Part shown: positions 48,793 to 63,792 of the stretch, piece after piece
Layout: every line of letters begins with the position of its first letter
How positions within the stretch are numbered: position 1 is the first letter of the stretch
Origin: a virus
Lineage: Duplodnaviria; Heunggongvirae; Uroviricota; Caudoviricetes
Length of the DNA stretch: 64,000 bases
Direction: 5' to 3' (one strand)
IMG/VR virus record: IMGVR_UViG_3300037455_000543
Location: 360,164-424,163 of that record
Notes under the pieces: generated by a model
The model's input: the letters and a program-made list of their open reading frames with translations, nothing else
The model's database searches: none
What the model was told of the DNA's origin: nothing
Made by a program: the position numbers and the translations under genes

Positions 48793-50117
48793 ATGGCTAA
48801 TGAAACAAAACCAACAGTAAGAATCAATTGTTGCAGTCTACCGTTATTGATTGGTATAACGGGCGCAGTCTGTGTAAGCTGGATTTTTAATCATTCTGTC
48901 TTATGGGCAATTTTACACGGTTGTCTTAACTGGTTCTATCTTGCTTATAAGGCTATTTGGTACGTTGTGACCAATTTTTAATTGTAAAAGGTTATGAAAT
49001 GATAACTAAAGAAGAAGTTGAACAGACTCTGGACAGCTATAAAAAGCTTGTTACACGTGCCCAGCATGTGTATAATCGTCTTTATACTGAGTTATACAGT
49101 AAGTATGGTAGAAATCAATATGATGCTGAGCCTGAGCTTTTCCTCGGTATCGAAAGCGGATATGATCTGCAAGTCAAGCCTTCGGATTATCCGGAAAATA
49201 TTGATTTCGGTACTCCTGACCATGATCGCGACGGTGATTATATCGGTTTTTGCACCTTTAAAAAGGAATTCCTTTATAACGATGAAGCACTAACTGAATA
49301 TATCAAGTCTGAAATTGAAAAGCATGAAGAAGTACAGAAGCGTCAGCGTGCAGCGGAAGCAGAGAAACGTAAGCGTGCTGCAGAAAAGAAAGAAGCTGAA
49401 GAACGAGCGCTTTATGAAAAATTAAAAGCTAAATATGAAGCTAACTAAGATAGTCTTATGAAAAAGAACAAATGGATTTCTGTAAAAGATAAATTGCCAG
49501 ATACGAATAGAAATGTTCTTGTCGTATCTTGTGGAAAGGTATGTATTGGTGATTTTGAATCAGTAATAAATAAGCAGTGGTGGGTAAACGATAGCGAAGG
49601 TTATCATAAGACCATGGCTGTTACTTACTGGATGGAATTACCAGAACTACCAGAAGATTAACATGTATAAAATTAAAAAACATAAAGTGAGGAAAAATAA
49701 AATGGGTGTAATCGAAATTTGGTCGATTCTAGCAGTAGTATTGCATTTCTGTGGCGTTGGCGCCTTCGCGGAATGGCCTGTAATCGCAGGTCCGTTAACT
49801 TGGAGTTGCCTCTGCCTTGAAATATGGGTATTTATTGTTTATTTCGTAATACTTGCCCTTGTATTCTTAGGCGCAGTATTCTCGAAAAAGTAATCAAAAA
49901 TTTACAAATTAAAAAATGACCGTTGACAAGACGGTTATTTTTTATTATATTTTATAATATGGGTAAAAAGAAAGAAAAAGAGCCTGTAACGCCAGATTAT
50001 ACAGTCTATATCGAGGTTTGGGATTCTGACAGGAAACCTCATAGATATAAAATCGATAAAGACGGCGAATTTACAATTCGTGGCGGAAATGCTGTTGAAC
50101 CTAAGCAGGGAGAATAA
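48793..50117 (+). CDS. five small genes (49458-49661 DUF551-like)
   Basis: WISVKDKLP...VTYWMELPELP in 49458 ORF. Confidence 0.6.
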
Positions 50118-50118
50118 T

Positions 50119-50622
50119 ATGTCAAGGACAAACGGATTATATGTTGGTTCATTTGACCCGCTTACTGTTGGTCATATGGATATTATTAAAAGAGCTGCAA
50201 AACTATTTGATTTGCTTTATGTAGGTATTGCCACCAATTCTACAAAGAACTATTTATTTACCGAACCCGAACGTTATAAGATGGTTCAAGAAGCAATAAG
50301 ATATCAAGGAATAGGCAATGCTTCAATTATTAGTGTTCCTGATCAAATGACGACAGATGTAATGATTAACTATAATATTCAGACATTGGTCAGAGGAGTT
50401 CGTAATTCTAAAGACATGGAAGATGAATATATATTGAATCAATATTATACGAATCTTAAGTATGATATGGAAGAAATTATATTGTTTAGTAGATTTCCAG
50501 CTGTTAGTTCGACATTTGTAAAAGAATGCATTAAGTATGGTAAATTTGAACGCCTTGATGAAAAATCGCTATTTGTACCAGCTAATGTGTCAAGTATGAT
50601 TTTAGATAGATTTAAGAGATAG
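50119..50622 (+). CDS. coaD: phosphopantetheine adenylyltransferase
   Basis: YVGSFDPLTVGHMDII.RA..LFD, LVRGVR, VSSTFVKE. Confidence 0.85.
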   Translation: MSRTNGLYVGSFDPLTVGHMDIIKRAAKLFDLLYVGIATNSTKNYLFTEPERYKMVQEAIRYQGIGNASIISVPDQMTTDVMINYNIQTLVRGVRNSKDMEDEYILNQYYTNLKYDMEEIILFSRFPAVSSTFVKECIKYGKFERLDEKSLFVPANVSSMILDRFKR

Positions 50623-50626
50623 TAGT

Positions 50627-51256
50627 ATGGCAAGAAAGAAAAGCGAAAATTGTTCTGATGTTATTCAGATTCTTGGCGGTGCAAATCATGATACCGTTCG
50701 AGAAGATGAAGATTTCTATGCCACTCCTACAATGGCAGTTCAAAAACTTATCGATTCTTTCGGTCCTGTATTGAAAATCGATAATGCAACGATATTTGAT
50801 CCGTGTGTAGGTAAAGGTCATATCTTAAAACCGTTCAGGGACCAGAAATACAATGTTGCTGGAACAGATTTAATATCAAGAACTGATTTATGGGATTCAC
50901 ATATTGAATATCAAGGCGGTCAGGATTTTTTGAGTAGAATAGAACCTTTTCATGGTTGTAATATCGTAACAAATCCGCCATATAAGATTTGTCTTGATTT
51001 CGCTAAGAAAGGCATAGAACTTATTGACGATAATCGTTACATGTGTATGCTTCTTAAGATTCAGTTCCTTGAAACCAAAGCAAGATATGAATTCTTCAAG
51101 AAATTTCCACCAAAGTATATCTACGTATTTGTAAATCGAATTGGTTGTATTCCAGGTGGAGAAAGCGATGTCAATAAGCCTTCTGCAATTTGTTATGCTT
51201 GGTATATCTGGCAGAAAGGTTATATTGGAGATCCAATGGTAAGGTGGATTGCCTAA
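50627..51256 (+). CDS. DNA N6-adenine methyltransferase
   Basis: DFYATP, DPCVGKG, DFL, IVTNPPY. Confidence 0.85.
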   Translation: MARKKSENCSDVIQILGGANHDTVREDEDFYATPTMAVQKLIDSFGPVLKIDNATIFDPCVGKGHILKPFRDQKYNVAGTDLISRTDLWDSHIEYQGGQDFLSRIEPFHGCNIVTNPPYKICLDFAKKGIELIDDNRYMCMLLKIQFLETKARYEFFKKFPPKYIYVFVNRIGCIPGGESDVNKPSAICYAWYIWQKGYIGDPMVRWIA

Positions 51257-52151
51257 TGAAAAAACTTATATTTCCTGAACCTGAAAAATTTAAACAGATT
51301 TGTCAAGAAGTAATTCAGACAACGCCGAAAATTGATGAAGGTGGTGCATGGTATATTGATAATTATAAATTGAAAAACGGATTATTGATGGATATTGAGT
51401 TTTATCCACCAATGGCTTATAGTGTAGTAGATCGAGATTATAATGGCGTATTTTTTGTAAGTGTAGGACCGGAAGGTGCATGGTCTGATAAAAAAGTACT
51501 TAAACAAAAACACACAAATACATTTAAAAAGTTTAAATCGATTTTACAAAAGGTAATAAAAGAAAATGTGTGAATTCTGTACAAAAGTAGTTCATGAAAG
51601 AATAGATGAATTTGAAGAACCTAATTGTGTAATGATTAGGCGATGGTATAAGTCTGAATTTGTATATGATGAATTAGACCGAGACCGTCGTGATGAATTT
51701 TATCTATTTGAACGTAGACATGAACCCATGAGTGTTCAAAAATCACCAATATGGTATTTATCAACACCTGGTAAACTTTTATTTCCTGTCAGCAACTGTC
51801 CAAAATGCGGAAGGGACTTGGTATAATTATATGAGAAACGATATTGGATATGTAAGTTTTACGAATGATGATTTTGAATTGCAAGCATCATTTAGCAATG
51901 AAAGATCTGCACAGTTTTTTGCCGAATACTTGAAAACTAAATATGGCGAAAATAACCAGACTAAAACTGATTTTCGTGGAATGCCATTCATGAAATTCAA
52001 GATGGATGACAAGAATGAAATTGTATTATGTGGAAACCTAGTTGCCAGCCTTCAATGCATTTTGTCAGACTATATAAATGTATTGATGAATCCGATTCCT
52101 GACTATAAGTATAATCCGGATAATAATATTATTAAAACGATAACATGGTAG
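51256..52151 (+). CDS. three hypothetical genes
   Basis: Coupled ORFs; 51566 has CxxC...CPKCG. Confidence 0.55.
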
Positions 52152-52180
52152 ACTGATAAAAATAATTTTATTTTTAAGGG

Positions 52181-52350
52181 TTTACAAGACGAGAATAATT
52201 TACTATATTATACATCGTTAAATGATTGAGTGTCTGATAGACGATCAATAAAATGACATAGACACAGTGGTTGCAGGTTGAGGCTGGATATTCCTTCCAG
52301 ATCTGGGTCTATTTGAGGGTGACGAATCGGTATTCCTTCAAGACACTTTA
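52181..52350 (+). ncRNA. promoter and candidate small structured RNA
   Basis: TTTACA-17-TATATT, then AGTGTCT...AGACACT-closed non-coding segment. Confidence 0.35.
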
Positions 52351-52488
52351 AAAATAGGGTTTACAAAACAAAAGTAAATTACTATATTTAACAACACAAA
52401 ATGATTGACTTTCAAAGTCGATTAGCAGATTTGAAAAAAGCGAGAATTAAGAAAAAAGTTTTATATATAATATAAAACGAGGATTGAA

Positions 52489-52551
52489 ATGCAATTAGTA
52501 GTAACAACAAACGTAACACCAGTCAATAATCCAAAGGTAACTTTCGATTAG
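52489..52551 (+). CDS. leader peptide 1 MQLVVTTNVTPVNNPKVTFD
   Basis: GAGG SD; V5 T4 N3 P2; precedes terminator and Asn/Pro/Thr/Met/Val tRNAs. Confidence 0.85.
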   Translation: MQLVVTTNVTPVNNPKVTFD

Positions 52552-52577
52552 TTTGTTTCATTACTCTGATTCTAATC

Positions 52578-52612
52578 AATCCTGTATGAGACAAACTCAA
52601 ACAGGATTTTTT
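52578..52612 (+). terminator. attenuator terminator 1
   Basis: AATCCTGT..TGAG/CTCA..ACAGGATT + T-run; competitor 52550-52561 pairs with 52586-52597. Confidence 0.85.
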
Positions 52613-52626
52613 AATTCTCCTATTAT

Positions 52627-52699
52627 TGTTCCATAGCTCAGTTGGTAGAGCCCTCGACTGTTAATCGAGTTGTCCCTGGTTCGAGTCCAGGTGGAACAG
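52627..52699 (+). tRNA. tRNA-Asn(GTT)
   Basis: Cloverleaf; CTCGA-CTGTTAA-TCGAG; G73. Confidence 0.9.
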
Positions 52700-52980
52700 C
52701 TAAGGTATCGTATTATTAAATACCGGGAAGGTCGGGGCGGCGGGTAATCCGCAGCCAAAGCAGGGAATGGTAGATCCCCGATATCGTTTTGCAAAACAAA
52801 GCAAGATAGTTAACACCGACGTCAACGTGCCCTCATTGGAGTTGATCACCAGACTTGTGGCGCCAACCGGTTAATGTAGCTAAAATTCGAAAGATATAGC
52901 AAACAACGTTACTATTTTGTTAGAAACTAAAAAACGTTATGCTGGTAGTCCAGTGGTGGTGGAACCACCTAAAAAACTTG

Positions 52981-53055
52981 CGGGGTGTAGCTCAGTCTGG
53001 CTAGAGCATCTGCTTTGGGAGCAGAGGGTCGTAGGTTCGAATCCTGTCACCCCGA
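52981..53055 (+). tRNA. tRNA-Pro(TGG)
   Basis: Canonical cloverleaf. Confidence 0.95.
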
Positions 53056-53059
53056 CGAA

Positions 53060-53705
53060 CATGGTGAGGGGCGTGCTCTGTCGAAAGGCAACACGAGCAA
53101 GGAACTAAATTCTTTACCCAAGCGGAAAGTAATTTCCGCCGGAGACTGTGCTTAAGTCGATTAATAATCGATATGGCGTCGGTAAAGTTGTCAGGAATAA
53201 ATACGCCAAGAGATTGGGTACCTGACATTAGTACGTTCTGGCGGTGAGGCTCACCAGCCCTGTAGAATGGGGTTGCGACAAAACCGAGGCGTGAGCTAAG
53301 GCACGACGCGGAAATACAGGTGCTTATCTTCATCGAGATTAGCATTATGATCTGGGCAAGACCTATAGCGATAATCGTACAGTGCATGTCACGAATACAT
53401 CTACAACTTTCACCCTGTGGGCCGATAGCAATGTGACCCTCCAAGTTGCTTACTTACTTGTTCCGAAAGTAAAACTCTGGAAATATTCCGCCAGTTGTCC
53501 AAAAGGAAACATGAGTTCCAACGCGGTGTATAGAGAAATCTATGAAACTTAGGCGCAGGAGGTTCGTTACCTGGTTACGAAAGTACGGAAATAACGTAAC
53601 GCTTTGTAATTGAAGCGAATTATTTGTTAGCGAGTGTAAAATGCGATTTATAAGATCTATCGCTTACATGAGTTAATAAATTAAGTTTGACAAACACAAT
53701 TACAT
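53060..53705 (+). ncRNA. candidate large structured ncRNA (~630 nt)
   Basis: GC-richer, no credible ORF, many hairpins, between tRNAs. Confidence 0.55.
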
Positions 53706-53710
53706 TTTTT

Positions 53711-53783
53711 GCTGGTGTAGCTCAATTGGCAGAGCAGCTGATTTGTAATCAGCAGGTTGTAGGTTCGATTCCTATCACCAGCT
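53711..53783 (+). tRNA. tRNA-Thr(TGT)
   Basis: Canonical cloverleaf. Confidence 0.95.
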
Positions 53784-53918
53784 CTAATAAATACTGTTAG
53801 GCGTTATTTAGAAGCTGCAGACTCTTTATAGTGCTAAATCGGGTGTAACACGTAAGATCAGTTACAGTAAGAGCTGGTATAATCAAAGACCTCCAGTAAC
53901 AGTAAATTTTGAATTTGA

Positions 53919-53993
53919 TGCGGCCGAGTGAAACGGAAAATCATTCAAGGCTCATAACCTTCGAGATACTGGGTTCGACTCCCTGGACCGCGA
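53919..53993 (+). tRNA. tRNA-Met(CAT), initiator-like, atypical
   Basis: AAGG-CTCATAA-CCTT; weak 1:72 pair; some stem mismatches. Confidence 0.7.
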
Positions 53994-54204
53994 CTAAAAT
54001 ATACTTAAGCGCAAGTGCCTTTTAACGGACGCACCATTTTAAGGACTGAGAGCTGGGATAACGTTCGGGAATGCGTAAACGCCCTAGTTCGACAACGTAT
54101 AGAGCTAAACCTCTTGTATAGGGTAAAACCGATGTATACTACGTTTAGTGAGCGCTGAATTCACATAAGGGACGTGGTGTGAAGAGTATATCTTTTGAAT
54201 TTAT

Positions 54205-54276
54205 CGCGGGTTGATGCAGTGGTAGCAAGCAAGGCTCATAACCTTGAAGTCCCTGGTTCGAGTCCAGGACCCGCTA
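54205..54276 (+). tRNA. tRNA-fMet(CAT)
   Basis: CGCGGG start, C1xU72 mismatch, CTCATAA loop. Confidence 0.85.
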
Positions 54277-54364
54277 CGAATACGGTGAAAAGATACTAGG
54301 CGAGTATCATTTGATTAAGTTCAAATCGGGCTGTAGTCATTAGAGTCGCACCACTTAAAAATTA

Positions 54365-54423
54365 TGGCATAGGAAGTTCCTATTTTTAAAATTAAATGGG
54401 TTAATTAGTATTACTTCCCGCCA
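54365..54423 (+). ncRNA. GC-AHA-N5-UUCCUA motif copy
   Basis: TGGC ATA GGAAG TTCCTA...TA CTTCC C GCCA. Confidence 0.7.
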
Positions 54424-54514
54424 AACTTTTAAAAGCCAGTCTACGGGAAAATAAAGAGTAGACCGTTACCCAGAAGCCTGACCACGAGCTGGGACTGTAT
54501 CAAAGTGGTCATAA

Positions 54515-54590
54515 CTCTCCTTCGCCTAGCTGGTTTATGGCACCTGTCTTACAAACAGGAACAACCTTGGTTCAAATCCAAGAGGGGAGA
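54515..54590 (+). tRNA. tRNA-Val(TAC)
   Basis: CCTGT-CTTACAA-ACAGG; full cloverleaf. Confidence 0.85.
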
Positions 54591-54597
54591 TAAAAAT

Positions 54598-54710
54598 AGC
54601 ATAGGTAGTTCCTATTATCAAACGTGTAGCTCAGTGGTTAGAGCGTCGGGAGCAATCTCGGAGATCGTTGGTTCGAGTCCAATCATGTTTACCAGAAGTA
54701 CTACCCGCTA
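54598..54710 (+). ncRNA. UUCCUA motif enclosing an anticodon-less tRNA-like RNA (54620-54694)
   Basis: Acceptor, D and T arms canonical; anticodon loop replaced by GCAA tetraloop; ends ACCA. Confidence 0.75.
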
Positions 54711-54722
54711 TAAAGTTTACAT

Positions 54723-54837
54723 GCGGAAAGTAGCTCAATTGGTAGAGCAGAAGTATTATGTTACTACCCGCTACACGCAAAGGTTGTTCCTATTAATGGG
54801 GAACTTTGGGTTGTAGGTTCGAATCCTGCCTTTCCGC
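54723..54837 (+). tRNA. tRNA body (Pro/His-like) with permuted UUCCUA motif inserted in anticodon loop
   Basis: Acceptor, D and T arms intact; ~48-nt insert between GAAGT and ACTTT. Confidence 0.7.
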
Positions 54838-54843
54838 CGAAAC

Positions 54844-54930
54844 TGGCATATGAAGTTCCTATTTTTGGAAATCCTAGTATTATCTTCGGATAAGAAGGGA
54901 TAAGGTTCAAATCCTTTTTACTTCTCGCCA
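54844..54930 (+). ncRNA. UUCCUA motif copy enclosing a T-arm
   Basis: TGGC ATA TGAAG TTCCTA...AAGG-TTCAAAT-CCTT...TA CTTCT C GCCA. Confidence 0.7.
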
Positions 54931-54990
54931 AATTAAAATTTAACAAAAACGGAAAAACAAAAAACATAAATAAACAAAAGAGAAAATAAA

Positions 54991-55056
54991 ATGACTTACG
55001 TTATGAACACAAATAATACCAACCCTAATAATAACCCTGAGGTGCTACAGGATTAG
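54991..55056 (+). CDS. leader peptide 2 MTYVMNTNNTNPNNNPEVLQD
   Basis: N7 T3 P2; precedes terminator and Asn/Pro/Thr tRNAs. Confidence 0.85.
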   Translation: MTYVMNTNNTNPNNNPEVLQD

Positions 55057-55089
55057 TTTTGTTTCATAACTAGATGAATTTTTAAACTG

Positions 55090-55131
55090 AATCCTGTAAG
55101 ACCTTTGAGACTTACAGGATTTTTTATTTTT
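55090..55131 (+). terminator. attenuator terminator 2
   Basis: AATCCTGTAAG/CTTACAGGATT + T-run; competitor TACAGGATTAGTTT (55046-55059) pairs with 55084-55098. Confidence 0.9.
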
Positions 55132-55207
55132 GTTTACTAGCTTAACTGGCAGAGCGCTTCCCGTGGCCACGGGTGAGAGATATTCGGTTCGACTCCATTG
55201 TAAACAG
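55131..55207 (+). tRNA. tRNA-like RNA with Asn-type acceptor and no anticodon loop
   Basis: TGTTTAC/GTAAACA-G; arm CCCGT-GGCC-ACGGG; weak T-stem. Confidence 0.6.
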
Positions 55208-55215
55208 CTACTTAT

Positions 55216-55303
55216 TCCACGGTACTCTAACTGGTAAGAGGCCTGGCTGTTAACCAGGTGTATGGTGTAAAAACCTATGGAGGTTCGAATCCTTCCCGTG
55301 GAG
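55216..55303 (+). tRNA. tRNA-Asn(GTT) with long variable arm
   Basis: CCTGG-CTGTTAA-CCAGG; U1-A72, G73; ~20-nt variable arm. Confidence 0.85.
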
Positions 55304-55311
55304 CTAAATAT

Positions 55312-55395
55312 TGGTAGGTACCCGAGTGGTAGCAGGGGGGAGACTGTTAATCTCTTGACGAAAGTCCGCCGCAGGTTCGAATCCTGCCCTATCAG
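55312..55395 (+). tRNA. tRNA-Asn(GTT) with Tyr-like class II body
   Basis: GGAGA-CTGTTAA-TCTCT; GAC-GAAA-GTC variable arm; G73. Confidence 0.85.
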
Positions 55396-55404
55396 CTAAA
55401 ATAA

Positions 55405-55478
55405 CGGAGTGTAGCGCAGATGGTCAGCGTGTTTGCTTTGGAAGCATAAGGTCGTTGGTTCGAATCCAACCACTCCGA
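55405..55478 (+). tRNA. tRNA-Pro(TGG)
   Basis: Cloverleaf, TTTGGAA loop. Confidence 0.9.
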
Positions 55479-55486
55479 TAAATTAA

Positions 55487-55560
55487 CAGGGTGTAACTCA
55501 GTTGGTTAGAGAGCTCGCCTCGGATGCGAGGGGTCGCTGGTTCGAGTCCAGCCATCCTGA
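55487..55560 (+). tRNA. tRNA-Pro(CGG)
   Basis: CTCGC-CTCGGAT-GCGAG. Confidence 0.9.
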
Positions 55561-55653
55561 TAAAATATAAAGTGCGCAGGAGACATACTAGCCGTAGGGG
55601 CTAGAGAAGTTATATCCAGACGGAGGTCGGATAGATGGTGGAATTGCGATAAT

Positions 55654-55726
55654 CAGAATGTAGCTCAGCTGGCAGAGCGCACCGTTCGGGGCGGTGAGGT
55701 CGGAGGATCATAACCTCTCATTCTGA
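55654..55726 (+). tRNA. tRNA-Pro(CGG), atypical T-loop
   Basis: CACCG-TTCGGGG-CGGTG; T-loop ATCATAA. Confidence 0.8.
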
Positions 55727-55737
55727 CTAAAATTTTT

Positions 55738-55803
55738 GGCACAGGTCGTTCCTATGAGCTCGTAGAGCAGCAAATTGTTAATTTGAAGTATTTACGACCC
55801 GCC
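55738..55803 (+). ncRNA. UUCCUA motif enclosing D-arm-like hairpin + Asn anticodon stem-loop
   Basis: GGC ACA GGTCG TTCCTA...CAAA-TTGTTAA-TTTG...TA CGACC C GCC. Confidence 0.75.
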
Positions 55804-55806
55804 TTT

Positions 55807-55879
55807 GCTGGAGTAATTCAACTGGTAGAATAGCGGTTTAGTAATCCGCAAGTTGTAGGTTCGAGTCCTATCTCCAGCT
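55807..55879 (+). tRNA. tRNA-Thr(AGT)
   Basis: GCGGT-TTAGTAA-TCCGC; Thr-type acceptor. Confidence 0.85.
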
Positions 55880-55886
55880 CTATAAT

Positions 55887-55959
55887 GCCGGAATGGCGCA
55901 ATTGGTAGCGCAGCTCTTCCGTAATGAGATGGTTGGGTGTTCGAGTCACTCTTTCGGCG
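55887..55959 (+). tRNA. tRNA-Thr(CGT), atypical (C33)
   Basis: Loop TCCGTAA; weak anticodon stem. Confidence 0.7.
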
Positions 55960-56010
55960 TATCATTAGAAAGGATTGACAATAGTCAATTCTTTTTCTAT
56001 ATTATAAATC

Positions 56011-56613
56011 ATGATGCAATTAATAGTTATATCGAGTTTCGCTACAGCTGCAATAATTGCTGCATATTATTTCGGCATAGGTTTACTTTATAAGTATAGA
56101 GCAGGAGTATCAAAAATTCTAGCCTTTATAGTCTTTTTCTCGATTATAGGTTATAGAATGTATAGGGATTATCAAGATGAAAAGATTGTGGAATCAGCAT
56201 TGACTGAAATAACTACCGAAATAGATAATGCTGAAAAGAACATGATGTCAGATAAGGATTTTCATGAGTTCGTAGCAAAATCAATATCTCAGAAAGATGG
56301 CGTAAGTTTAAATATTATTCCGCAAATCGATACGGCAATCTTGAAAATTAATAAGATTTATCAGAATGTATTAAATGATCCGGATTTTAAGATTATGATA
56401 ACGAGCGCAAATGATTCTAAGTCACATTCAAAGAATTCGGCACATTATCGAGGACAAGCAGTAGATATAAGGATAAAGAATATTAACCATAGACATAAGA
56501 ATGAAATTATTGCAGCGATTAAGGAAATCTTAGGTGATAGGTTTTTGGTTCTCCATGAAGACAAGGGAAAACCAAATGAGCATTTGCATGTTCAGTTGAA
56601 GAACAATGGTTGA
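56011..56613 (+). CDS. membrane-anchored peptidase M15-family (endolysin-like)
   Basis: Two N-terminal TM helices; ITS...SAHYRGQAVDI...EHLHVQ zinc motifs. Confidence 0.8.
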   Translation: MMQLIVISSFATAAIIAAYYFGIGLLYKYRAGVSKILAFIVFFSIIGYRMYRDYQDEKIVESALTEITTEIDNAEKNMMSDKDFHEFVAKSISQKDGVSLNIIPQIDTAILKINKIYQNVLNDPDFKIMITSANDSKSHSKNSAHYRGQAVDIRIKNINHRHKNEIIAAIKEILGDRFLVLHEDKGKPNEHLHVQLKNNG

Positions 56614-56683
56614 TGGAAAGGGTTGACGAATGTCAGTCCTTTTTTTATATTATACGTATTAACAACAAATAACAGAGGAAAAA

Positions 56684-57586
56684 ATGAAAAAAATTATCAA
56701 CTTCTTGTTTAACTATCTCACTAAGCGTGCGCAGAAAGCAAAACCTAAAGAAAAAAATATCTATAATGCAGCAGGTAAGGTAATTTTAAATTTCCATAAT
56801 CTTATCAATCCAGCTATAACTACATATGAATATGATGAGGAAGGCCGTGAGATTTCAAATAAGTACATGTATAATGGTCATTTAAGTTCCATGACCAAGG
56901 GTGAAGTTATGGAAGACGGCCGGTTTAAAGAAACACGTATTACTTTCCCTGATAAGTCTAATAAACTTGAAGAAAAAGAAGTCGTTGTTTATTATACTTC
57001 TCCTGATAGGTCTACTCTTTATGATGAAAATTATCAGACTGTTCGAATGGAAGAAGTTGAAAATGATGAAAATGGTCGTGCTATTAAAAATGAAACGCGG
57101 TTGTATGATGACGGTAAGCTTCGTGCAACAGAAGTTCATCACTACCAATATGACGAACGTGGAAATCGAACTAAGATCGATGGTAAGACTACTGAAGCTG
57201 ATGACAGCATTAAATATATTTCTTCCTCCGAATATAATTATGATGAAAATAATTTAATGGTTCATAGAATTGAAACATTCAAAGCTATGACTAAAGACCA
57301 CATCTCTGATGATGAAACTCAATATCATTGTCAATATGATGAACAAGGTCGTGAAATTAGATGTTTAACTTATGAATGGGACCGTATTCGTGCAAGGTCT
57401 GACAGGTCTTGTCGTGATCATTTCTATTTCGGTGATGATGAAATTGAAGTATATAATCACATTACTTTGAATTTCATGATTACTACTTATGTTAAGAAAG
57501 TAACTAGGTCTGATGGTTCTAGGGTTGAAACTGAATGGTATTTGCCTAACTGGTTTGGTAAACTGCTGGTTTGGTGCTTACGTTAA
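56684..57586 (+). CDS. YD-repeat-like protein
   Basis: Repeated YEYDEEGR / YQYDERGN / YNYDENN / QYDEQGR. Confidence 0.7.
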   Translation: MKKIINFLFNYLTKRAQKAKPKEKNIYNAAGKVILNFHNLINPAITTYEYDEEGREISNKYMYNGHLSSMTKGEVMEDGRFKETRITFPDKSNKLEEKEVVVYYTSPDRSTLYDENYQTVRMEEVENDENGRAIKNETRLYDDGKLRATEVHHYQYDERGNRTKIDGKTTEADDSIKYISSSEYNYDENNLMVHRIETFKAMTKDHISDDETQYHCQYDEQGREIRCLTYEWDRIRARSDRSCRDHFYFGDDEIEVYNHITLNFMITTYVKKVTRSDGSRVETEWYLPNWFGKLLVWCLR

Positions 57587-57604
57587 TTTAAAAAGGAATA
57601 TAAT

Positions 57605-59738
57605 ATGACATACGAAGAATTAGTCAGTGATGAACGTTATGGTAAAATCTTGAAGCGTTGCCAAGAATTACCTATTGGAAAAGTTCTTGCATCTAATATC
57701 GATGATGCTTGGCCAGATTTGCCTGAAGAACTGCGCGAAGTACATGATGCTTATTACAATCCTAATGAACATTATTATGACTCTATTATCGATGTTATCG
57801 ATGACTATTTCTTGTATGTTGAAGAAGATATTACAGAAGAAAGTAAGAATAAAGTCCTCGATTATGCAATGAATCTTAAGGATATTAATCTTGTCTTCTT
57901 TGATGAATCTACGAAGGAATAAATTATGAATTATAATCTTTCAAGACTTCCGGGAACATACGAATTTGACCGGGAACAATTCGGCTTCAAGATAAATTCA
58001 AAGGTTTACAATGCACAAGAATACAGTTCTATTACGAACTGTTTTAGAGTTGTAGATATTAAGAAGAAAGACAAGTATATTGAAGCAGTGGATGTTATTG
58101 AAAATGGTAAAATGCATTCTGATAAGGATGACAAGTATTTTCATAAATGTGCAGACTATATGGTTAATTCGCCATTATATTATGATACTACGATTGGACT
58201 TTATAAGCCTACCCAGAATTATATTCATCTTATGACAAAGCTTGTTTTTAGAAAGATGATTATTGCATACCTTAAGAAAGAAGAAGATGTAGAAGTAGTT
58301 GAAAAATTGACAAATGAAAAACAGTTTAAAACTACATTTGTAATTAAGAATACTGAAGTTTTTAATGACCTTCATGAATATTTCTATGACTGGTATGTTA
58401 ATAAGACTTGTTCATATGAAGATTTTTTGAATAAAAATATAAGCAAGATTGGAAAAACCAATTATTTGATGCCTAGCACTGATAAGTATAAGATTGATCC
58501 TAATCATCCTGTAGAATTTTCAAATATAGCAGACGGACTTGATTGTGCAGATGTATATACTGCTTATCTTAATTTAATTAATCGTATTAAACAAATCTAT
58601 AATCAAATTGAATGGAAAGAACAAGAAAAGAATAAAAAGTTCAAAGCTGTAGTAATTTTAACTGTTTAAGGAAATAATTATGCCAAGATATGCGAAGAAA
58701 GGATGTACAAGAGCAGATATTATTGAAAAGATGCTTGACCAGCTTAAAGCAGATGGCGGGTATGATGAGGATATGGATGAAACCGACTCTGAACAAGTAA
58801 TTCAGCAGTGGCTTTATAATTGTGTTGCATATAGTGACATGAATCCTCAGATAGAAAAAGACTTGTCAAAGCTCGAATTTGATTGGGAAAATTCAGAAGA
58901 AGATTTTGAAAGTCAAAAATATGGAAAGCTTCCGGATGGAACATCGATTATCTGGTGTTTTGCAGGTGGAGATTGGGAGTTCCCTATTCATTTTGCCGTT
59001 TATATTGACGATAAGGACCATCTGAGAGCTTATATGCCGTTAGACGGTAATGTATATTGTCCAAAGTGTAAATGTGCTTACGGCTCATGCGAGGACGAAG
59101 AACATGAGCCTGAGGAAGAGCCTACGCCAGATTGGGAAAAGATGTATGCTGCGGCATGCAAACGAATTGAAACACGATAAGGTATAAAATATGAAATGTG
59201 CGATTTGTCAAGATCGATATGATACATTAAGTTGTCGTATTACAATGAGTAATGATAATCAAAGGCGTGATCCACAATATGATATGATTGTGTGCGAGAA
59301 CTGTTATTATAAGATTCTTGAAAAAATTATATTGATGGACCCAATAAATAAACGCTTAAATAAAGAAGAACACGTATGATGTCAACAATAAATACAGTTG
59401 TATTAATTTTAAGTATAATTGATATTCTGATTTTTTTATTTGCTCTTTTTAATTTCTTCTGTGCATTTTTCTGCAAAGGCGCAGATCGATTTGGGGTAAT
59501 TTTTCTCGGTATAGTAGCTACAATTTCCGCAATTGCTGGTTATGTAAGATTGCCAGACAAAGATGAACGTGTAGCATTATTTATGCAGATGAAGCCAAAA
59601 TGTGAGCATGAAACAGTTAAATGTTTAGAAGCAAAAGCAAGATGGTATAAAGACTCAATAGAATATAATATACGAGATACTACAGAAATTATAGATTCTA
59701 TTAAACAGGTTATAGATAAATATAAAACTGAGAAATAG
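57605..59738 (+). CDS. five hypothetical genes
   Basis: Coupled ORFs with SD. Confidence 0.6.
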
Positions 59739-59776
59739 GGTTTACAAAAGTAAAACAATTTACTATATTTAACATC

Positions 59777-59837
59777 GTTAAAGCAAAAAATGTTCCTATG
59801 ATGATATTTGCAAAATAGTTTTACATTTCGCTTTAAC
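59777..59837 (+). ncRNA. UUCCUA motif copy with TAT-TTGCAAA-ATA anticodon-like loop
   Basis: GTTAAAGC AAA AAATG TTCCTA...TA CATTT C GCTTTAAC directly after a promoter. Confidence 0.7.
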
Positions 59838-59842
59838 ACATC

Positions 59843-59953
59843 GGGGAAATAGCTCAGTGGTAGAGCAACGGTATTACGTTACGTAGTGATGCATATAACG
59901 TTCCTATTTCCATTTCAAGGCGTGTGTCGTAGGTTCGAGTCCTACTTTCCCCA
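59843..59953 (+). tRNA. tRNA body with permuted UUCCUA motif inserted in anticodon loop
   Basis: Perfect acceptor/D/T arms; insert TA CGTTA C GTA-GTGA-TGC ATA TAACG TTCCTA. Confidence 0.75.
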
Positions 59954-60067
59954 CTAAAAAATATTTTAAAAAGGGGTTGACAAACCAAAAACTTTTTACT
60001 ATATTTAACAACGTAAAATAACAAAAAACAGGAAAAATTTTTTATATATAATATAAAGGTAACGAAA

Positions 60068-60181
60068 ATGACTATGAACGTATTTGAACATGAATTTTTT
60101 GCAGCAGAACGTGCCGCAGCTGAATTCGCAGCTGCAGCGTTTGAAGCATTTTGTTCAGATACAGTGCATAGGATTAGGTAG
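60068..60181 (+). CDS. leader peptide 3 MTMNVFEHEFFAAERAAAEFAAAAFEAFCSDTVHRIR
   Basis: A10 F6 E5; precedes terminator and Glu/Ala/Phe tRNAs. Confidence 0.9.
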   Translation: MTMNVFEHEFFAAERAAAEFAAAAFEAFCSDTVHRIR

Positions 60182-60206
60182 TTAACCTAAATAAGTTTGA
60201 AAAAAC

Positions 60207-60241
60207 GGTTCCTGTGCACAAAGCGCAGGAACTTTTCTTTT
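60207..60241 (+). terminator. attenuator terminator 3
   Basis: GGTTCCTGTGC/GCGCAGGAACT + T-run; competitor GTGCATAGGA (60164-60173) pairs with 60210-60219. Confidence 0.9.
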
Positions 60242-60292
60242 ATACTTTGCTGGTAGTCCAGTAGTGGAGACACCACTTAAAAAACAACATTT

Positions 60293-60365
60293 GCTCCGTT
60301 CGGCCAGCGGTTCAAGCCAACCGACTTTCTATCGGTTAACCCCAGTTCGAATCTGGGACGGAGTA
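60293..60365 (+). tRNA. tRNA-Glu(TTC)
   Basis: ACCGA-CTTTCTA-TCGGT. Confidence 0.85.
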
Positions 60366-60375
60366 CTAAAAATTT

Positions 60376-60447
60376 GGGTCATTAGTATAATGGTAGTATC
60401 TCTGATTTGCACTCAGAGGGCATCGGTTCGAATCCGATATGTATCCA
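60376..60447 (+). tRNA. tRNA-Ala(TGC), bulged acceptor
   Basis: TCTGA-TTTGCAC-TCAGA; G3.U70. Confidence 0.8.
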
Positions 60448-60456
60448 CGAAAATTT

Positions 60457-60529
60457 GGGACTGTAGCTCAGTAGGTAGAGCGTTGGCCTGAAGAGCCAAG
60501 CGTCGTAGGTTCGATTCCTACCGGTCCCG
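60457..60529 (+). tRNA. tRNA-Phe(GAA)
   Basis: TTGGC-CTGAAGA-GCCAA. Confidence 0.9.
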
Positions 60530-60537
60530 CTAAATAT

Positions 60538-60611
60538 GGGCTTGTGGCGCAATTTGGTAGCGCAGTAGCTTTGCAAGCTAAAGGTTACGGGATCGTTCCC
60601 CGTCAGGTCCA
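60538..60611 (+). tRNA. tRNA-Ala(TGC)
   Basis: TAGC-TTTGCAA-GCTA; G3.U70. Confidence 0.85.
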
Positions 60612-60620
60612 CTACATTAT

Positions 60621-60693
60621 GCCTCGGCATCCAATCGTGGGAATGGACGGGACTGAAAATCCCAGAAATCCGGTTCGACTCCGGAACCTGGCA
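60621..60693 (+). tRNA. tRNA-Phe(GAA), atypical acceptor
   Basis: GGGA-CTGAAAA-TCCC; good T-arm, poor acceptor pairing. Confidence 0.65.
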
Positions 60694-60704
60694 CTAAACA
60701 TTAT

Positions 60705-60777
60705 GGGCTCGCATGATCCAAGGAGGCGACCGGTCCTTGCAAGACTAGTGTGGTGAGTTCGATTCTCATCGGGTCCA
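60705..60777 (+). tRNA. tRNA-Ala(TGC), atypical D-arm
   Basis: GGTC-CTTGCAA-GACT; G3.U70. Confidence 0.8.
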
Positions 60778-60789
60778 CTAAAATTTTTC

Positions 60790-60863
60790 GGCGCTGTCGA
60801 ATAACTGGTTCAGTTCACCGGCCTTTCAAGTCGGAAATTCGGGTTCGAGTCCCGACAGCGCTA
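60790..60863 (+). tRNA. tRNA-Glu(TTC)
   Basis: CCGGC-CTTTCAA-GTCGG. Confidence 0.9.
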
Positions 60864-60874
60864 CTAAAATATAT

Positions 60875-60947
60875 GGGTTCGCATGATCCAAGGAGGCGAG
60901 CTGGCTTTGCAAGCCGGCTGAGGTGGATTCGATTTCCACCGGATCCA
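60875..60947 (+). tRNA. tRNA-Ala(TGC), atypical D-arm
   Basis: CTGGC-TTTGCAA-GCCGG; G3.U70; D region identical to 60705 copy. Confidence 0.8.
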
Positions 60948-61114
60948 CGAAAGTCTACGGGTGGTGCCATTACTGTAGGCAAAGCATAGAAATATGCTGG
61001 TGATGAAGGAACAATACAACATAGGTTTAAATGCGCCTTGAGTATCAAGACCTAAAATTGGCTGAGAATCACGACGAAGTTTTGTGTCTTCGTAGGAATA
61101 AAAAACACATTTAT

Positions 61115-61188
61115 GGCTCTATCGTCTACGCTGGTTAGGACGCTAGGTTTTCAACCTGGTAAATTTGGTTCGACACCAAATAGGGCTA
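61115..61188 (+). tRNA. tRNA-Glu(TTC)
   Basis: CTAGG-TTTTCAA-CCTGG. Confidence 0.9.
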
Positions 61189-61193
61189 CTAAT

Positions 61194-61269
61194 GGGGGCT
61201 ATGGTTTAATTACCGCTCTTGGGCATAGTGATTTCCTACTTTTAATTGGTTCGAATCCAATTGCCTCCA
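61194..61269 (+). ncRNA. Ala-type acceptor+T-arm minihelix fused to permuted UUCCUA motif
   Basis: GGGGGC/GCCTCC-A with G3.U70; AATTGG-TTCGAAT-CCAATT; TA ATTAC C GC..GC ATA GTGAT TTCCTA. Confidence 0.7.
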
Positions 61270-61367
61270 CTAAAAATCTTGAGGGTCTAAAGTGAAGCCT
61301 GCTTAGACACGTATCAAAGAGATGATAAAAGACTGGTTGGATTCCAGTTGGATCCTTAAGAAATCAT

Positions 61368-61440
61368 GGTTCTATCGTCTAGTGGCCAAGGACAGTCGGT
61401 TCTCAGCCGCCTTACTTCAGTTCGAATCTGAATAGAACTA
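61368..61440 (+). tRNA. tRNA-Glu(CTC)
   Basis: CGG-TTCTCAG-CCG; Glu-type D arm. Confidence 0.8.
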
Positions 61441-61464
61441 CTATTCCATTAAAGGAAGTATTAT

Positions 61465-61794
61465 ATGATAACAGTGACACAAATTAACGATTTAAGAAAA
61501 GAGACTCAGGTTAGCATGCTTCTTTGTAAGCAAGCTCTTGAAGCAACAGGTGGTGATTTCGATGCTGCAAAAAAGTGGCTTCGTGAACAAGGTAAAGAAG
61601 TTGCTGGGGATTCATCTGCTTTTGGATTCACATTGATTAAAAATGGACAAGTTTCTGAACAGAGTACAGATAATAAGTTCACTTATTCCGACGGCCATAC
61701 AAGTATAGATATTCGCAATTATGGAGGTTCTACACCTTATACCATATGGGGCGGAATAACTGGACAGATAGTCCTTAATCCCGTAAAAGTATAA
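61465..61794 (+). CDS. protein with EF-Ts N-terminal (UBA-like) domain
   Basis: ITVTQINDLRKETQVSMLLCKQALEATGGDFDAAKKWLREQG. Confidence 0.8.
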   Translation: MITVTQINDLRKETQVSMLLCKQALEATGGDFDAAKKWLREQGKEVAGDSSAFGFTLIKNGQVSEQSTDNKFTYSDGHTSIDIRNYGGSTPYTIWGGITGQIVLNPVKV

Positions 61795-61869
61795 TATATA
61801 ATTAATTCTATTAAAAAGGGTTGACAAATGTCAACCTTTTTCTATATTATATAAAAAATATCATAAAGG

Positions 61870-62406
61870 ATGGTTAGACGCAGAATGATTAAACCATGTG
61901 ATTTTATACGTTGTTGTAAAAAGGTTTTTGGCGAGGCAAATTGTACATTTACAAATACGGTAGGAACGTCAGAACCATATTATATAACTTGTATTGTAGA
62001 GAATAAGGAAGTTGCACATTTAGCTGTATATAGTAATATTTTGTCATCTTTATGCCGTGTATACATAGATAATTGTGAAAATATTGTAAATTATAAAATT
62101 ACATTATATTATTATCTTTTAAAAGCAAATAAGGCATTAAAGTCAGTTCGACAAAAATTATTTAAAATTTATAGGACTATTGATTCTGAATTTCCAGATG
62201 AAAATTTAAATGATACTGTGAAATTAACAATTCAATATCTTACTAATGTTGAATTTGAGACAGAAGAAAAAGTTCAAAAATTATTTAAAGATTTATTTGA
62301 TAGCACATGTCACAACAATCCTAAAATTAGAGAAAAACTTATTTTAGATATGTTCGAATTTTATGCTAATATGGTAAAGATTAATAAGATTAAAGAAGTT
62401 GAATAA
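61870..62406 (+). CDS. hypothetical protein
   Basis: ORF behind hairpin-promoter at ~61815-61848. Confidence 0.6.
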   Translation: MVRRRMIKPCDFIRCCKKVFGEANCTFTNTVGTSEPYYITCIVENKEVAHLAVYSNILSSLCRVYIDNCENIVNYKITLYYYLLKANKALKSVRQKLFKIYRTIDSEFPDENLNDTVKLTIQYLTNVEFETEEKVQKLFKDLFDSTCHNNPKIREKLILDMFEFYANMVKINKIKEVE

Positions 62407-62407
62407 T

Positions 62408-62440
62408 AAAAAAACCAGGTCATTAACCTGGTTTTATTTT
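62408..62440. terminator. bidirectional intrinsic terminator
   Basis: AAAACCAGGT/ACCTGGTTTT between convergent genes. Confidence 0.8.
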
Positions 62441-62454
62441 TAAATTCAATTTAA

Positions 62455-62790
62455 TTAATAAAACTCATCTACTGTTTTATCTGCAAGTTTATTTTGAACA
62501 CAGGCATCAGTCGTGCACTTAGCAAACTCAATACCATCTTCGTATACAATATCTGCCGTTTTTATGCTAGTATTATATTTTATAGCAAGGTCATTAGGCA
62601 ATTCTAAATTTTTATAACCATTGATAAAGAGTAGACGAAAATCATTATAATCGCTATCATCCCAATATTTATAATTACGGTCCCAAAGTTCATCAAAAAT
62701 GTCTTGCGGCGTATATGTAAAACCTCTGGTTTCGTTTATAACTTGATATCCATATTTATTAAGTATTTTTTTGGCTTCATTTAAATTCAT
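62455..62790 (-). CDS. hypothetical late-expressed protein
   Basis: AAGGAG SD and TATAAATA (minus strand 62816-62823), the T4 late promoter consensus. Confidence 0.75.
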   Translation of the reverse strand: MNLNEAKKILNKYGYQVINETRGFTYTPQDIFDELWDRNYKYWDDSDYNDFRLLFINGYKNLELPNDLAIKYNTSIKTADIVYEDGIEFAKCTTDACVQNKLADKTVDEFY

Positions 62791-62938
62791 TTGGTGTTCT
62801 CCTTAAATTATATATTATTTATAAAAAATTAATTTAAGGGGTTTACAAAAAGAAAATAAATTACTATATTTAACATCGTTAAAACAAAAAACAAAAACAG
62901 GAAAAAATTTTTTATATATAATATAAAGGTTAAGAAAA

Positions 62939-63040
62939 ATGACTAAGTTTGTAGTTGACACTCATGATTGCAAGACTCGCCGCGACGGACGAGGTTTCGG
63001 CAAGCATGATAAGGATCGTTACCTACACAGGGTCATCTAG
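62939..63040 (+). CDS. leader peptide 4 MTKFVVDTHDCKTRRDGRGFGKHDKDRYLHRVI
   Basis: D5 R5 K4 G3 H3; precedes terminator and Asp/Arg/Lys/Gly tRNAs. Confidence 0.85.
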   Translation: MTKFVVDTHDCKTRRDGRGFGKHDKDRYLHRVI

Positions 63041-63065
63041 TATTAAACTGTATAAAGTTTTAAAG

Positions 63066-63103
63066 AATGATTCCTGTGTAAAAACGGGAATCATTTTTTA
63101 TTT
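63066..63103 (+). terminator. attenuator terminator 4
   Basis: AATGATTCCTGT/ACGGGAATCATT + T-run; competitor TACACAGGGTCAT (63024-63036) pairs with 63067-63080. Confidence 0.85.
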
Positions 63104-63177
63104 GGTCTCATTGCCTAGTGGTCTAAGGCGCTGGTCTGTCTAACCAGTTTTCGTGAGTTCGAATCTCACTGGGATCG
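63104..63177 (+). tRNA. tRNA-Asp(GTC)
   Basis: CTGGT-CTGTCTA-ACCAG; G73. Confidence 0.85.
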
Positions 63178-63188
63178 CTACAAACAAA

Positions 63189-63251
63189 ATAGCATAAGAA
63201 GTTCCTATTAAAAAATACAGACTGCAAATCCGTTAATATACTTCTCGCTAT
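63189..63251 (+). ncRNA. UUCCUA motif copy with Cys-type (CTGCAAA) anticodon loop
   Basis: ATAGC ATA AGAAG TTCCTA...ACAGA-CTGCAAA-TCCGT...TA CTTCT C GCTAT. Confidence 0.7.
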
Positions 63252-63255
63252 ACTT

Positions 63256-63331
63256 GGGGCCGTAGCTCAATTTTGGTTAGAGCACCGGACTGTCACTTCG
63301 GAGGTTGAGGGTTCAAGTCCCTTCGGTCCCG
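63256..63331 (+). tRNA. tRNA-Asp(GTC)
   Basis: CCGGA-CTGTCAC-TTCGG. Confidence 0.9.
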
Positions 63332-63339
63332 TTAAATAT

Positions 63340-63419
63340 ACACCAGTAGCCGAGCCTGACTACGAATCAGGTACACGTAACTGGAGCTGAAAATGCAGGT
63401 TCGAACCCTGTCTGGTGTA
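63340..63419 (+). tRNA. tRNA-Arg(ACG) with rearranged D region
   Basis: Perfect acceptor, CCTGA-CTACGAA-TCAGG and T-arm; only 8 nt before anticodon arm, 23 nt after. Confidence 0.7.
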
Positions 63420-63430
63420 CTAAAAAATAT

Positions 63431-63485
63431 GCGGTGGGAGTTTTACTAATTTCTCGTGTCCGACACCGGGAAGATAAAAAATTAG
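63431..63485 (+). ncRNA. repeated pseudoknot element, copy 1
   Basis: GCGGTG GGAG TTTT ACTAAT TTCTC GTGTCCGACACCGGG..ATAAAAA ATTAG. Confidence 0.6.
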
Positions 63486-63568
63486 ATTCGCCAGCTCAGC
63501 GAATTCAAACAAATGAGTTTCTGGAGTTTGTAGGTAGCTTCTGTCCAAAACCAAAAACCTTCGCCTAT

Positions 63569-63643
63569 GCCTCACTAACTCAATTTGGTTAGAGTACCTG
63601 CCTCTTAAGCAGGGAGTTCAAGGTTCAAGTCCTTGGTGGGGTA
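63569..63643 (+). tRNA. tRNA-Lys(CTT)
   Basis: CCTGC-CTCTTAA-GCAGG. Confidence 0.9.
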
Positions 63644-63647
63644 CTAT

Positions 63648-63704
63648 GCGGTGAGAGTTTTGCTGGCTTCTCGTGTCCGACACCGGGCAGATAAAAAACC
63701 AGCA
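63648..63704 (+). ncRNA. repeated pseudoknot element, copy 2
   Basis: Same core with covarying TGCTGG/CCAGCA. Confidence 0.6.
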
Positions 63705-63709
63705 TTTAT

Positions 63710-63783: not shown

Positions 63784-63792
63784 TTAAAATTT

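Follow-up and report, generated by a model that had tools for sequence, protein, structure and literature searches.

A proposed leader-peptide attenuator, probably the second of two gates in series, before an Asn/Pro/Thr tRNA block in a tailed-phage genome

The locus

The window analysed here is a 64,000-nucleotide (nt) stretch of DNA that forms the 3' end (positions 360,164 to 424,163) of a tailed-virus record of 424,163 base pairs (bp) with 35% G+C (IMG/VR record IMGVR_UViG_3300037455_000543). The genome holds seven units, each composed of a leader, a terminator and a transfer RNA (tRNA) array, and this study concerns the second of them, unit 2, whose leader open reading frame (ORF) begins at window position 54991 (Table 1). 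Its cargo block starts at 55131 on the same strand, and between the terminator and the next promoter (55975) ARAGORN reports the anticodons Asn GTT (twice), Pro TGG, Pro CGG (twice), Thr AGT and one labelled 'Tyr GTA'. Sequence comparison and RNA folding models lead us to read unit 2, with a probability of roughly three in four, as a ribosome-mediated leader-peptide transcription attenuator that gates these Asn, Pro and Thr tRNA genes.

The stop codons of the seven leaders lie at 52549, 55054, 60179 and 63038 in the window and at 10871, 12864 and 325873 (minus strand) in the genome. Since the record has a terminal repeat of 127 bp, the tRNA region continues into the start of the record. Alone among the seven, unit 2 lacks a promoter and its associated box and is placed behind another gate. 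An Rfam scan of 50000-64000 returned tRNA matches only, plus noise well below the gathering score, with no T-box or other cis-regulator; blastn against GenBank phages likewise gave only tRNA matches, and a search for relatives of the neighbouring ORF at 56684-57586 found none.

Table 1. Features of unit 2 and of the gate preceding it (window positions)
Feature	Start	End	Strand	Remarks
Upstream gate (unit 1)	52360	52612	+	promoter TTTACA-17-TATATT, TATATATAATATAAA box, leader 1 at 52489-52551 (MQLVVTTNVTPVNNPKVTFD), terminator 1
5' leader of unit 2	54934	54990	+	A-rich, G-poor; homologous to the 5' untranslated region of promoter-proximal units, without their -35/-10 hexamers
Leader ORF	54991	55056	+	21 codons + TAG, reads MTYVMNTNNTNPNNNPEVLQD; intact; frame kept in six lineages
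Regulatory core NTNNTNPNNNP	55006	55038	+	7 Asn, 2 Thr and 2 Pro codons
Antiterminator 5' strand (strand A)	55046	55059	+	TACAGGATTAGTTT; spans last three codons and stop codon
Linker hairpin TTCAT/ATGAA	55063	55079	+	small, within antiterminator loop; in four of six lineages
Antiterminator 3' strand	55084	55098	+	overlaps 5' arm of terminator and includes bases just before that arm
Intrinsic terminator	55089	55131	+	12-bp stem (55089-55100 with 55111-55122), 10-nt loop, U-run TTTTTTATTTTT
tRNA-like RNA	55131	55208	+	first after terminator; anticodon arm closed by 4-nt loop (CCCGTGGCCACGGG), hence without anticodon
tRNA, anticodon GTT (Asn)	55216	55304	+	89 nt, long variable arm, G73
tRNA, anticodon GTT (Asn)	55312	55396	+	85 nt, long variable arm, G73, G3:U70
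tRNA-Pro (TGG)	55405	55478	+	ARAGORN
tRNA-Pro (CGG)	55487	55560	+	ARAGORN
Structured spacer RNA	55561	55653	+	93 nt, conserved, before third tRNA-Pro
tRNA-Pro (CGG)	55654	55727	+	atypical T loop; called by ARAGORN, not by Rfam
T-armless tRNA-like RNA	55743	55804	+	acceptor-like stem, D-like arm, anticodon-like arm with loop TTGTTAA (GTT)
tRNA-Thr (AGT)	55807	55880	+	ARAGORN
Thr-like tRNA	55886	55960	+	loop TTCCGTAAT; ARAGORN 'Tyr GTA', alignment with Thr tRNAs gives CGT
Unit end	55967	56003	+	terminator-like hairpin overlapping next sigma-70-like promoter (TTGACA-17-TATATT)

A leader spelled in the codons of its cargo

The original prediction had singled out an 11-codon core made up entirely of Asn (N), Thr (T) and Pro (P) codons, and such a core is indeed present. 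Across the six frames of the genome no other N/T/P run exceeds 8 codons, and from composition only 2e-4 runs of 11 would be expected genome-wide.

How well the leader suits its cargo was gauged with a matrix in which every leader was scored against every array of the seven units under plain wobble rules. Of the 5040 possible ways to assign leaders to arrays, the true one alone scored best. For leader 2, its own array can read 11 of the 20 codons scored, and the arrays of units 3-7 read 1-3 of them. As far as sequences can tell, other leaders track their cargo in composition as well: in the related genome G002, Val tRNAs occur in the Glu/Ala/Phe array and Val codons in the core of that array's leader, and in the present genome array 1 has a Val tRNA and leader 1 is Val-rich. 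For unit 2 the match of leader and cargo holds at the level of the amino acids (Asn/Thr/Pro), whereas at the level of codons it is looser than in the other units.

The predicted terminator/antiterminator switch

Two mutually exclusive helices can form downstream of the core. The terminator has a folding energy of -14.5 kcal/mol (z -5.65 against shuffles) and the antiterminator one of -18.9 kcal/mol (z -4.38). The minimum-free-energy fold of the whole leader is the antiterminator, which is the case for unit 2 alone among the seven. In a duplex test covering units 1-6, pairing of the 3' end of leader 2 with the 5' arm of its terminator reached -21.0 kcal/mol, a value attained by none of 2000 shuffles. 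Units 3-6 share the design in which the antiterminator spans the stop codon (duplex p 0.001-0.011), and the antiterminator of unit 1 was not significant in this test (p 0.15).

The dependence of the two helices on ribosome position was explored in a thermodynamic model by moving a 31-nt ribosome mask codon by codon along the leader. As long as the A site lay at a codon no further than 55027, which covers eight of the 11 core codons, the antiterminator formed all 14 of its base pairs and the terminator none of its 12. From 55033 through the stop codon the terminator was complete (12/12), which places the switch between 55027 and 55033. An upstream 1:2 pairing (anti-antiterminator or pause hairpin) was looked for by folding leader 2 and was not found. 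On this model the switch has the geometry of a classical attenuator, with the difference that a leader without translation is predicted to let the polymerase pass.

The seven leaders end in TAG five times, in TGA twice and never in TAA, whereas 75% of the long ORFs of the genome end in TAA and 12% in TAG; the probability of at least five TAG among seven is 4e-4. Either the stop codon must pair within the antiterminator, or a stop codon served by a single release factor lengthens the stay of the ribosome.

Conservation of the unit

At least six distinct versions of unit 2 are available: that of the present genome, L019 (G006), G003 (with L046, L037 and L048), the G001/G002 type (with L047, L049, L256 and L157), L259 and L267. 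L259, L267 and two copies of the G001 type are the real ones among the matches listed from a loose metagenome pattern, which were mostly due to chance. The motif GATTAGTTT(N)GTTTCAT gave 106 matches in viral contigs, nearly all of them chance, the real ones being relatives already known, and a scan with a promoter pattern yielded a single unrelated contig devoid of tRNAs. At the head of the tRNA array of the cultured Xanthomonas phage X1, a spot check revealed no obvious leader or terminator.

In all six lineages the ORF is kept and every change in its length involves whole codons. Changes in the core stay within N/T/P or are synonymous, one Val in L259 excepted. The tail PEVLQD-TAG is invariant, with synonymous changes in its Glu and Val codons. 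The three switch strands are invariant as well, while the terminator loop and the linker vary; counted over the six lineages, the share of cells that pair is 98.6% for the terminator and 90.4% for the antiterminator. In every lineage whose cargo is known, no tRNAs other than those for Asn, Pro and Thr occur in it.

The invariant PEVLQD could be invoked to argue that the ORF encodes a functional 21-residue peptide, its codon match with the cargo being incidental. This is barely credible, given that the tail is also the antiterminator strand and is constrained at the RNA level, that the core varies freely within N/T/P, length included, and that the peptide is of low complexity without any hydrophobic segment. 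The attenuator reading of unit 2 itself, already put forward in the original prediction, is supported by the ORF, the codon match, the terminator and the exclusive antiterminator, kept in six lineages.

A probable second gate in series

Units 1 and 2 can be aligned over the last Asn codons, the stop codon, the motif GATTAGTTT(T)GTTTCAT, the base of the terminator and the U-run, which confirms the motif and terminator base that had been described as common to both attenuators. Upstream of unit 2 the promoter situation is also as originally stated: no sigma-70-like site (-35/-10 hexamers, 16-18 nt spacer) exists on the plus strand of 52389-55975. A TAAAAT at 54934 has no -35 partner and is not conserved, nor is any -35/-10 pair or TG-extended -10. 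The sequence preceding leader 2, homologous to the 5' untranslated region of the promoter-proximal units, starts about where the transcripts of those units start. As judged from the sequence, the promoter region of unit 1 is the only evident source of transcripts reaching unit 2.

The same order of array 1, A-rich spacer and leader 2 is found in L019, G003 and L267, and this recurrence of the promoterless arrangement in four lineages lends support to the suggestion of a second gate on one transcript. Most likely, transcripts would have to pass gate 1 before they reach unit 2.

A rather different view is that unit 2 is an independent transcription unit served by a promoter not of the sigma-70 kind, for instance the T4-type late variant CATAAATA held by its 5' leader at 54965-54972; the attenuator itself would be unaffected. 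The full late element TATAAATA, of which CATAAATA matches 7 of 8 positions, behaves as a late promoter of this phage, as in T4, to judge by its positions: 89 of its 125 copies genome-wide (71%) lie within 50 nt upstream of an ORF start. The box TATATATAAT of the promoter-proximal units aligns with an altered form, CATAAATAA, in unit 2, which is invariant in the four series-type lineages despite varying flanks. Against this, the variant CATAAATA stands before an ORF in 4 of 29 cases (14%), which is no more than background, a conserved sigma-70-type alternative is equally lacking, and the four lineages are so closely related that the invariance of CATAAATAA carries little weight. We consider an independent unit unlikely and retain the series arrangement as the most likely one. 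Neither CATAAATA nor TATATATA, which precedes ORFs at 12%, again the background rate, is supported as a general late promoter by its genome-wide positions.

The origin of the arrangement can be traced in relatives. The complete genome G001 (415,750 bp) has a single N/T/P unit, located directly behind promoter and box and endowed with a leader and switch of the unit 2 type; G002 and L259 agree with it in these respects. It follows that a duplication took place in which unit 2 kept the old switch and lost the promoter. The original prediction of a unit that was duplicated and re-tuned is borne out as regards the duplication, for which the alignment with attenuator 1 speaks, but is corrected as to which copy changed: by comparison with G001, unit 2 keeps the ancestral leader and switch, and unit 1 was re-spelled to include Val.

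The loss of the promoter and of the TATATATAATATAAA box, together with the weak ribosome-binding site, might also suggest that unit 2 is merely a decayed duplicate, whose ORF is no longer translated and whose terminator is constitutive or a leaky punctuation between tRNA blocks. This is very unlikely. The ORF is intact in six lineages, with whole-codon insertions and deletions only and changes restricted in composition, and both helices are kept. The same leader and switch form the primary, promoter-proximal gate in G001/G002 and L259, and a constitutive terminator of -14.5 kcal/mol would silence nine conserved RNA genes.

Some further features of the promoter regions were recorded. In promoter-proximal units, a conserved box TTTT(T)ATATATAATATAAA lies between promoter and leader (52462-52479, 60040-60057 and 62910-62927 in the window; 12743-12760 in the genome); it differs by one base from TATAAATAATATAAA, the extended form of the late promoter that other places in the genome use. 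Upstream of the unit 1 promoter, at a distance of 180 nt, there is another sigma-70-like promoter (TTTACA-17-TATATT at 52181). Between these two promoters lies a G+C-rich stretch (52181-52350) devoid of ORFs, which is conserved in G003 and may correspond to a small RNA.

The RNAs behind the proposed gate

The cargo had been described as carrying only Asn, Pro and Thr anticodons. This agrees with the ARAGORN calls for these three amino acids, with the caveat that the gene labelled 'Tyr GTA' is Thr(CGT)-like only by alignment. Aligned with Thr tRNAs, its loop TCCGTAA gives the anticodon CGT, within an open loop of 9 nt that has C33 and is closed by a weak pair; the tRNA has G1-C72 and C2-G71. 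In L019 the loop of this RNA is kept and its stem altered by a compensatory pair, and G001/G002 carry a Thr TGT tRNA in its place. The anticodon-less RNA at 55131, the spacer RNA at 55561 and the T-armless RNA at 55743 had been missed in the earlier reading of the block.

Both GTT genes differ from canonical class I bacterial tRNA-Asn: GUU and G73 are present but the variable arm is long, and their bodies are nearest to the Ser tRNAs of the phage (67-70%). The amino acid that they carry cannot be told from the sequence; G3:U70, found in the second of them, is the main alanine identity pair in E. coli. A confinement of long-arm Asn tRNAs to lineages with two gates was considered and rejected, as in L157 a long-arm Asn tRNA comes after a leader of the G001 type. 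Unexpected anticodons are also found on further long-arm tRNAs of the genome (Cys GCA, 89 nt; Ile GAT, 83 nt; Gln TTG, 88 nt), and several of its Leu tRNAs are short (74 nt).

In the anticodon-less RNA, the acceptor, D arm and T arm are normal and the anticodon arm is a closed 14-nt palindrome; the counterpart in L259, on the reverse strand right after the terminator, has the palindrome altered to CCCGCTGCAGCGGG with the hairpin preserved. The structured spacer is conserved in L019 and G001/G002 and has no Rfam match. Its hairpins, compared by eye, change in step between lineages (CTAGCC..GGCTAG versus CTAGC..GCTAG; CGCA/TGCG versus CACA/TGTG).

The T-armless RNA belongs to a family of tRNA-like RNAs within the arrays, with members at 54371-54423, 54603-54710, ~54848-54930, 55743-55804 and 63196-63250 in the window and at 13507-13567 and 320439-320488 (minus strand) in the genome. 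Their layout comprises GCATA, a 7-nt acceptor-like strand, an invariant TCCTAT, a variable interior, the matching 3' strand and CGCY. Position 1 is always an A:C mismatch and some copies lack a T arm; within the copy at 54603-54710 there is a complete cloverleaf, with a tetraloop at the end of its anticodon arm. Five aligned copies show compensatory changes in 7 of 14 pairs. Among four orthologues of 55743-55804 the loops read GTT, GCT, GAT and GGT, so that all four bases occur at position 35. A relationship with T4 rnaC/rnaD was rejected, no motif in common being found.

Elsewhere in the arrays, tRNA genes are interrupted in or near the anticodon loop (54724-54837 and 59843-59953 in the window; 5745-6062 in L046). 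The two window genes give Rfam tRNA matches of 114 and 111 nt and have inserts of about 40 nt containing a GTTCCTAT motif. In array 1 of G003, a tRNA-Asn has an insert of about 240 nt after CTGTT, and relatives have homing-endonuclease-like ORFs between tRNAs. Arrays 1 and 3 each have, immediately ahead of a tRNA, a copy of the double hairpin GCTGGTAGTCCAGTRGTGG...CCAC (52937-52975 and 60249-60285), which may act as a processing signal or represent a small RNA. Directly 3' of the Glu/Ala/Phe tRNA array lies an ORF of 109 amino acids (61465-61794) that matches, below the threshold, the N-terminal domain with which elongation factor Ts binds EF-Tu (PF25025, 29.6 bits; cut-off 33.2).

Proposed mechanism and trigger

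The tRNA block of unit 2 would probably be transcribed only while Asn, Thr and Pro codons are read slowly. RNA polymerase would start at the promoters at 52181 and 52360, pass gate 1 and the first tRNA block and transcribe leader 2, where a ribosome would load on the 21-codon ORF and trail the polymerase. If Asn, Thr and Pro codons are decoded fast, the ribosome would arrive at the TAG and cover strand A, the terminator stem (55089-55122) would form and transcription would stop at the U-run. If instead the matching tRNAs are scarce, cut or uncharged, a ribosome waiting in the first eight core codons (55006-55029) would leave strand A free to pair with the 5' arm of the terminator, and the polymerase would read on into the tRNA block. 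The outcome would be a negative feedback of tRNA supply on decoding speed. We infer that the ORF is translated, that the terminator works and that switching occurs by stalling.

Several observations weigh against this interpretation. Array 1 reads 10 of the 20 codons of leader 2, almost as many as the proper array, and unit 1 also senses Asn, Thr and Pro. No tRNA of the block reads the CCT codon of leader 2 by strict Watson-Crick or G:U pairing, and the leader has no CCG or ACG codon though CGG and CGT-like tRNAs follow. The ribosome-binding site of the ORF (GAGA, 54980-54983, 7 nt before the ATG) is weak. In the footprint scan without a ribosome the antiterminator forms, so that the gate is 'on' and the device would report translation in general, not only the decoding of Asn, Thr and Pro codons. 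Neither helix shows covariation among the six lineages, because the stems do not vary, and strand A is in part coding as well.

What the gate would respond to in nature is a separate matter. Ribosomes stall alike for want of a charged and of an intact tRNA, and the architecture is that of thrL/ilvL-type leaders, so one might hold that the gate reports amino-acid supply, i.e., the charging of Asn, Thr and Pro tRNAs, instead of the amount or integrity of these tRNAs. We regard this as distinctly improbable: tRNAs as cargo cannot relieve starvation, which would make the response futile, and all seven units of the genome gate tRNAs only. For a gate in front of tRNA genes, it makes sense to respond to a shortage of functional tRNA and not of amino acid. 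The natural trigger of the attenuator would then presumably be tRNA loss, for example through host defences that cut tRNAs.

A defence of this kind is known in the PARIS effector AriB, which depletes tRNA-Lys(UUU), Thr(UGU), Asn(GUU) and Thr(CGU) and, to a minor extent, cleaves His and Pro(UGG) tRNAs (PMC12409363). Ribosomes then stall at the matching codons, and the tRNAs of phage T5 overcome the effect (PMC12409363). By analogy, AriB supplies the kind of signal proposed here as the input of the gate.

The two gates might even form an escalation circuit against tRNA-cutting host immunity, a rather speculative idea to which we give a low probability. Gate 1 (Val/Thr/Asn/Pro) would release ordinary Asn, Pro, Thr, Met and Val tRNAs. 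Should decoding remain slow, for instance because a PARIS-like nuclease cuts these first-line tRNAs too, gate 2 would release a reserve of odd molecules: the Ser-like long-arm Asn(GTT) tRNAs, one of them with G3:U70, the Thr-like tRNA with its 9-nt loop, a Pro tRNA whose T loop is atypical, and the anticodon-less and T-armless RNAs. Such molecules could escape the nuclease or soak it up.

Relation to known systems

Leader-peptide attenuators responding to more than one amino acid are familiar from enterobacteria, with thrL (Thr/Ile) and ilvL and ivbL (Ile/Val/Leu), next to trpL, hisL, pheL and leuL. Unit 2 shares with them a short leader in which codons for several amino acids abound, an intrinsic terminator, an antiterminator that depends on ribosome position and the sequence from stalling to read-through. 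These leaders gate biosynthetic enzymes, however, whereas unit 2 would gate tRNA genes, so that the loop controls tRNA supply. A 1:2 'protector' pairing, typical of trpL though not universal among leader-peptide attenuators, was not found in unit 2, which when untranslated is predicted to read through. In addition, its antiterminator strand includes the stop codon, and it resides in a phage.

Closer in its target is the pheM leader of the E. coli pheST operon, where Phe codons attenuate the synthesis of Phe-tRNA synthetase. Here too a leader-peptide attenuator controls a decoding component for the codons that it contains. In contrast to unit 2 with its tRNA genes, pheM controls a synthetase protein, with a single amino acid and a single gate, and is cellular.

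T-box leaders also sense the status of tRNA through a terminator/antiterminator switch, and their tandem copies, such as the three in series before thrZ of Bacillus subtilis, multiply read-through probabilities. Unlike unit 2, where no T-box Rfam match occurs, they bind uncharged tRNA directly, without ribosome or ORF.

With respect to phage biology, the nearest case is that of T5, whose Asn, Thr and Lys tRNAs replace host tRNAs cut by AriB (PMC12409363). The targets of AriB (Asn GUU, Thr UGU, Thr CGU and, to a minor extent, Pro UGG) overlap the set of units 1 and 2. That report describes no sensing or regulation of the phage tRNA genes (PMC12409363), and in the present system the link to such a nuclease is a proposal. 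A full-text search of the literature, with older subscription papers outside its coverage, found no report of leader-peptide control of tRNA genes. The mechanism proposed for unit 2 is thus of a known kind, leader-peptide attenuation, and it is the use that is new, namely the gating of tRNA genes, here as a second gate in series.

Implications

Why and when phages use their own tRNAs is a matter of debate, in which the matching of codon usage is opposed to the replacement of tRNAs destroyed by host defences. To our knowledge, the regulation of phage tRNA genes has hardly been studied. If the attenuator reading is true, a leader spelled in the codons of its tRNA cargo makes tRNA production demand-driven, and the classical attenuator, so far known for amino-acid supply, becomes a sensor of decoding capacity. 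The device measures about 140 nt and has a standard terminator; it could be used to report how fast particular codons are decoded. What unit 2 would add is that gates can be stacked, giving one transcript two thresholds, and that in their evolution whole units are duplicated, promoters lost and leaders re-spelled, with a leader composition that tracks the cargo.

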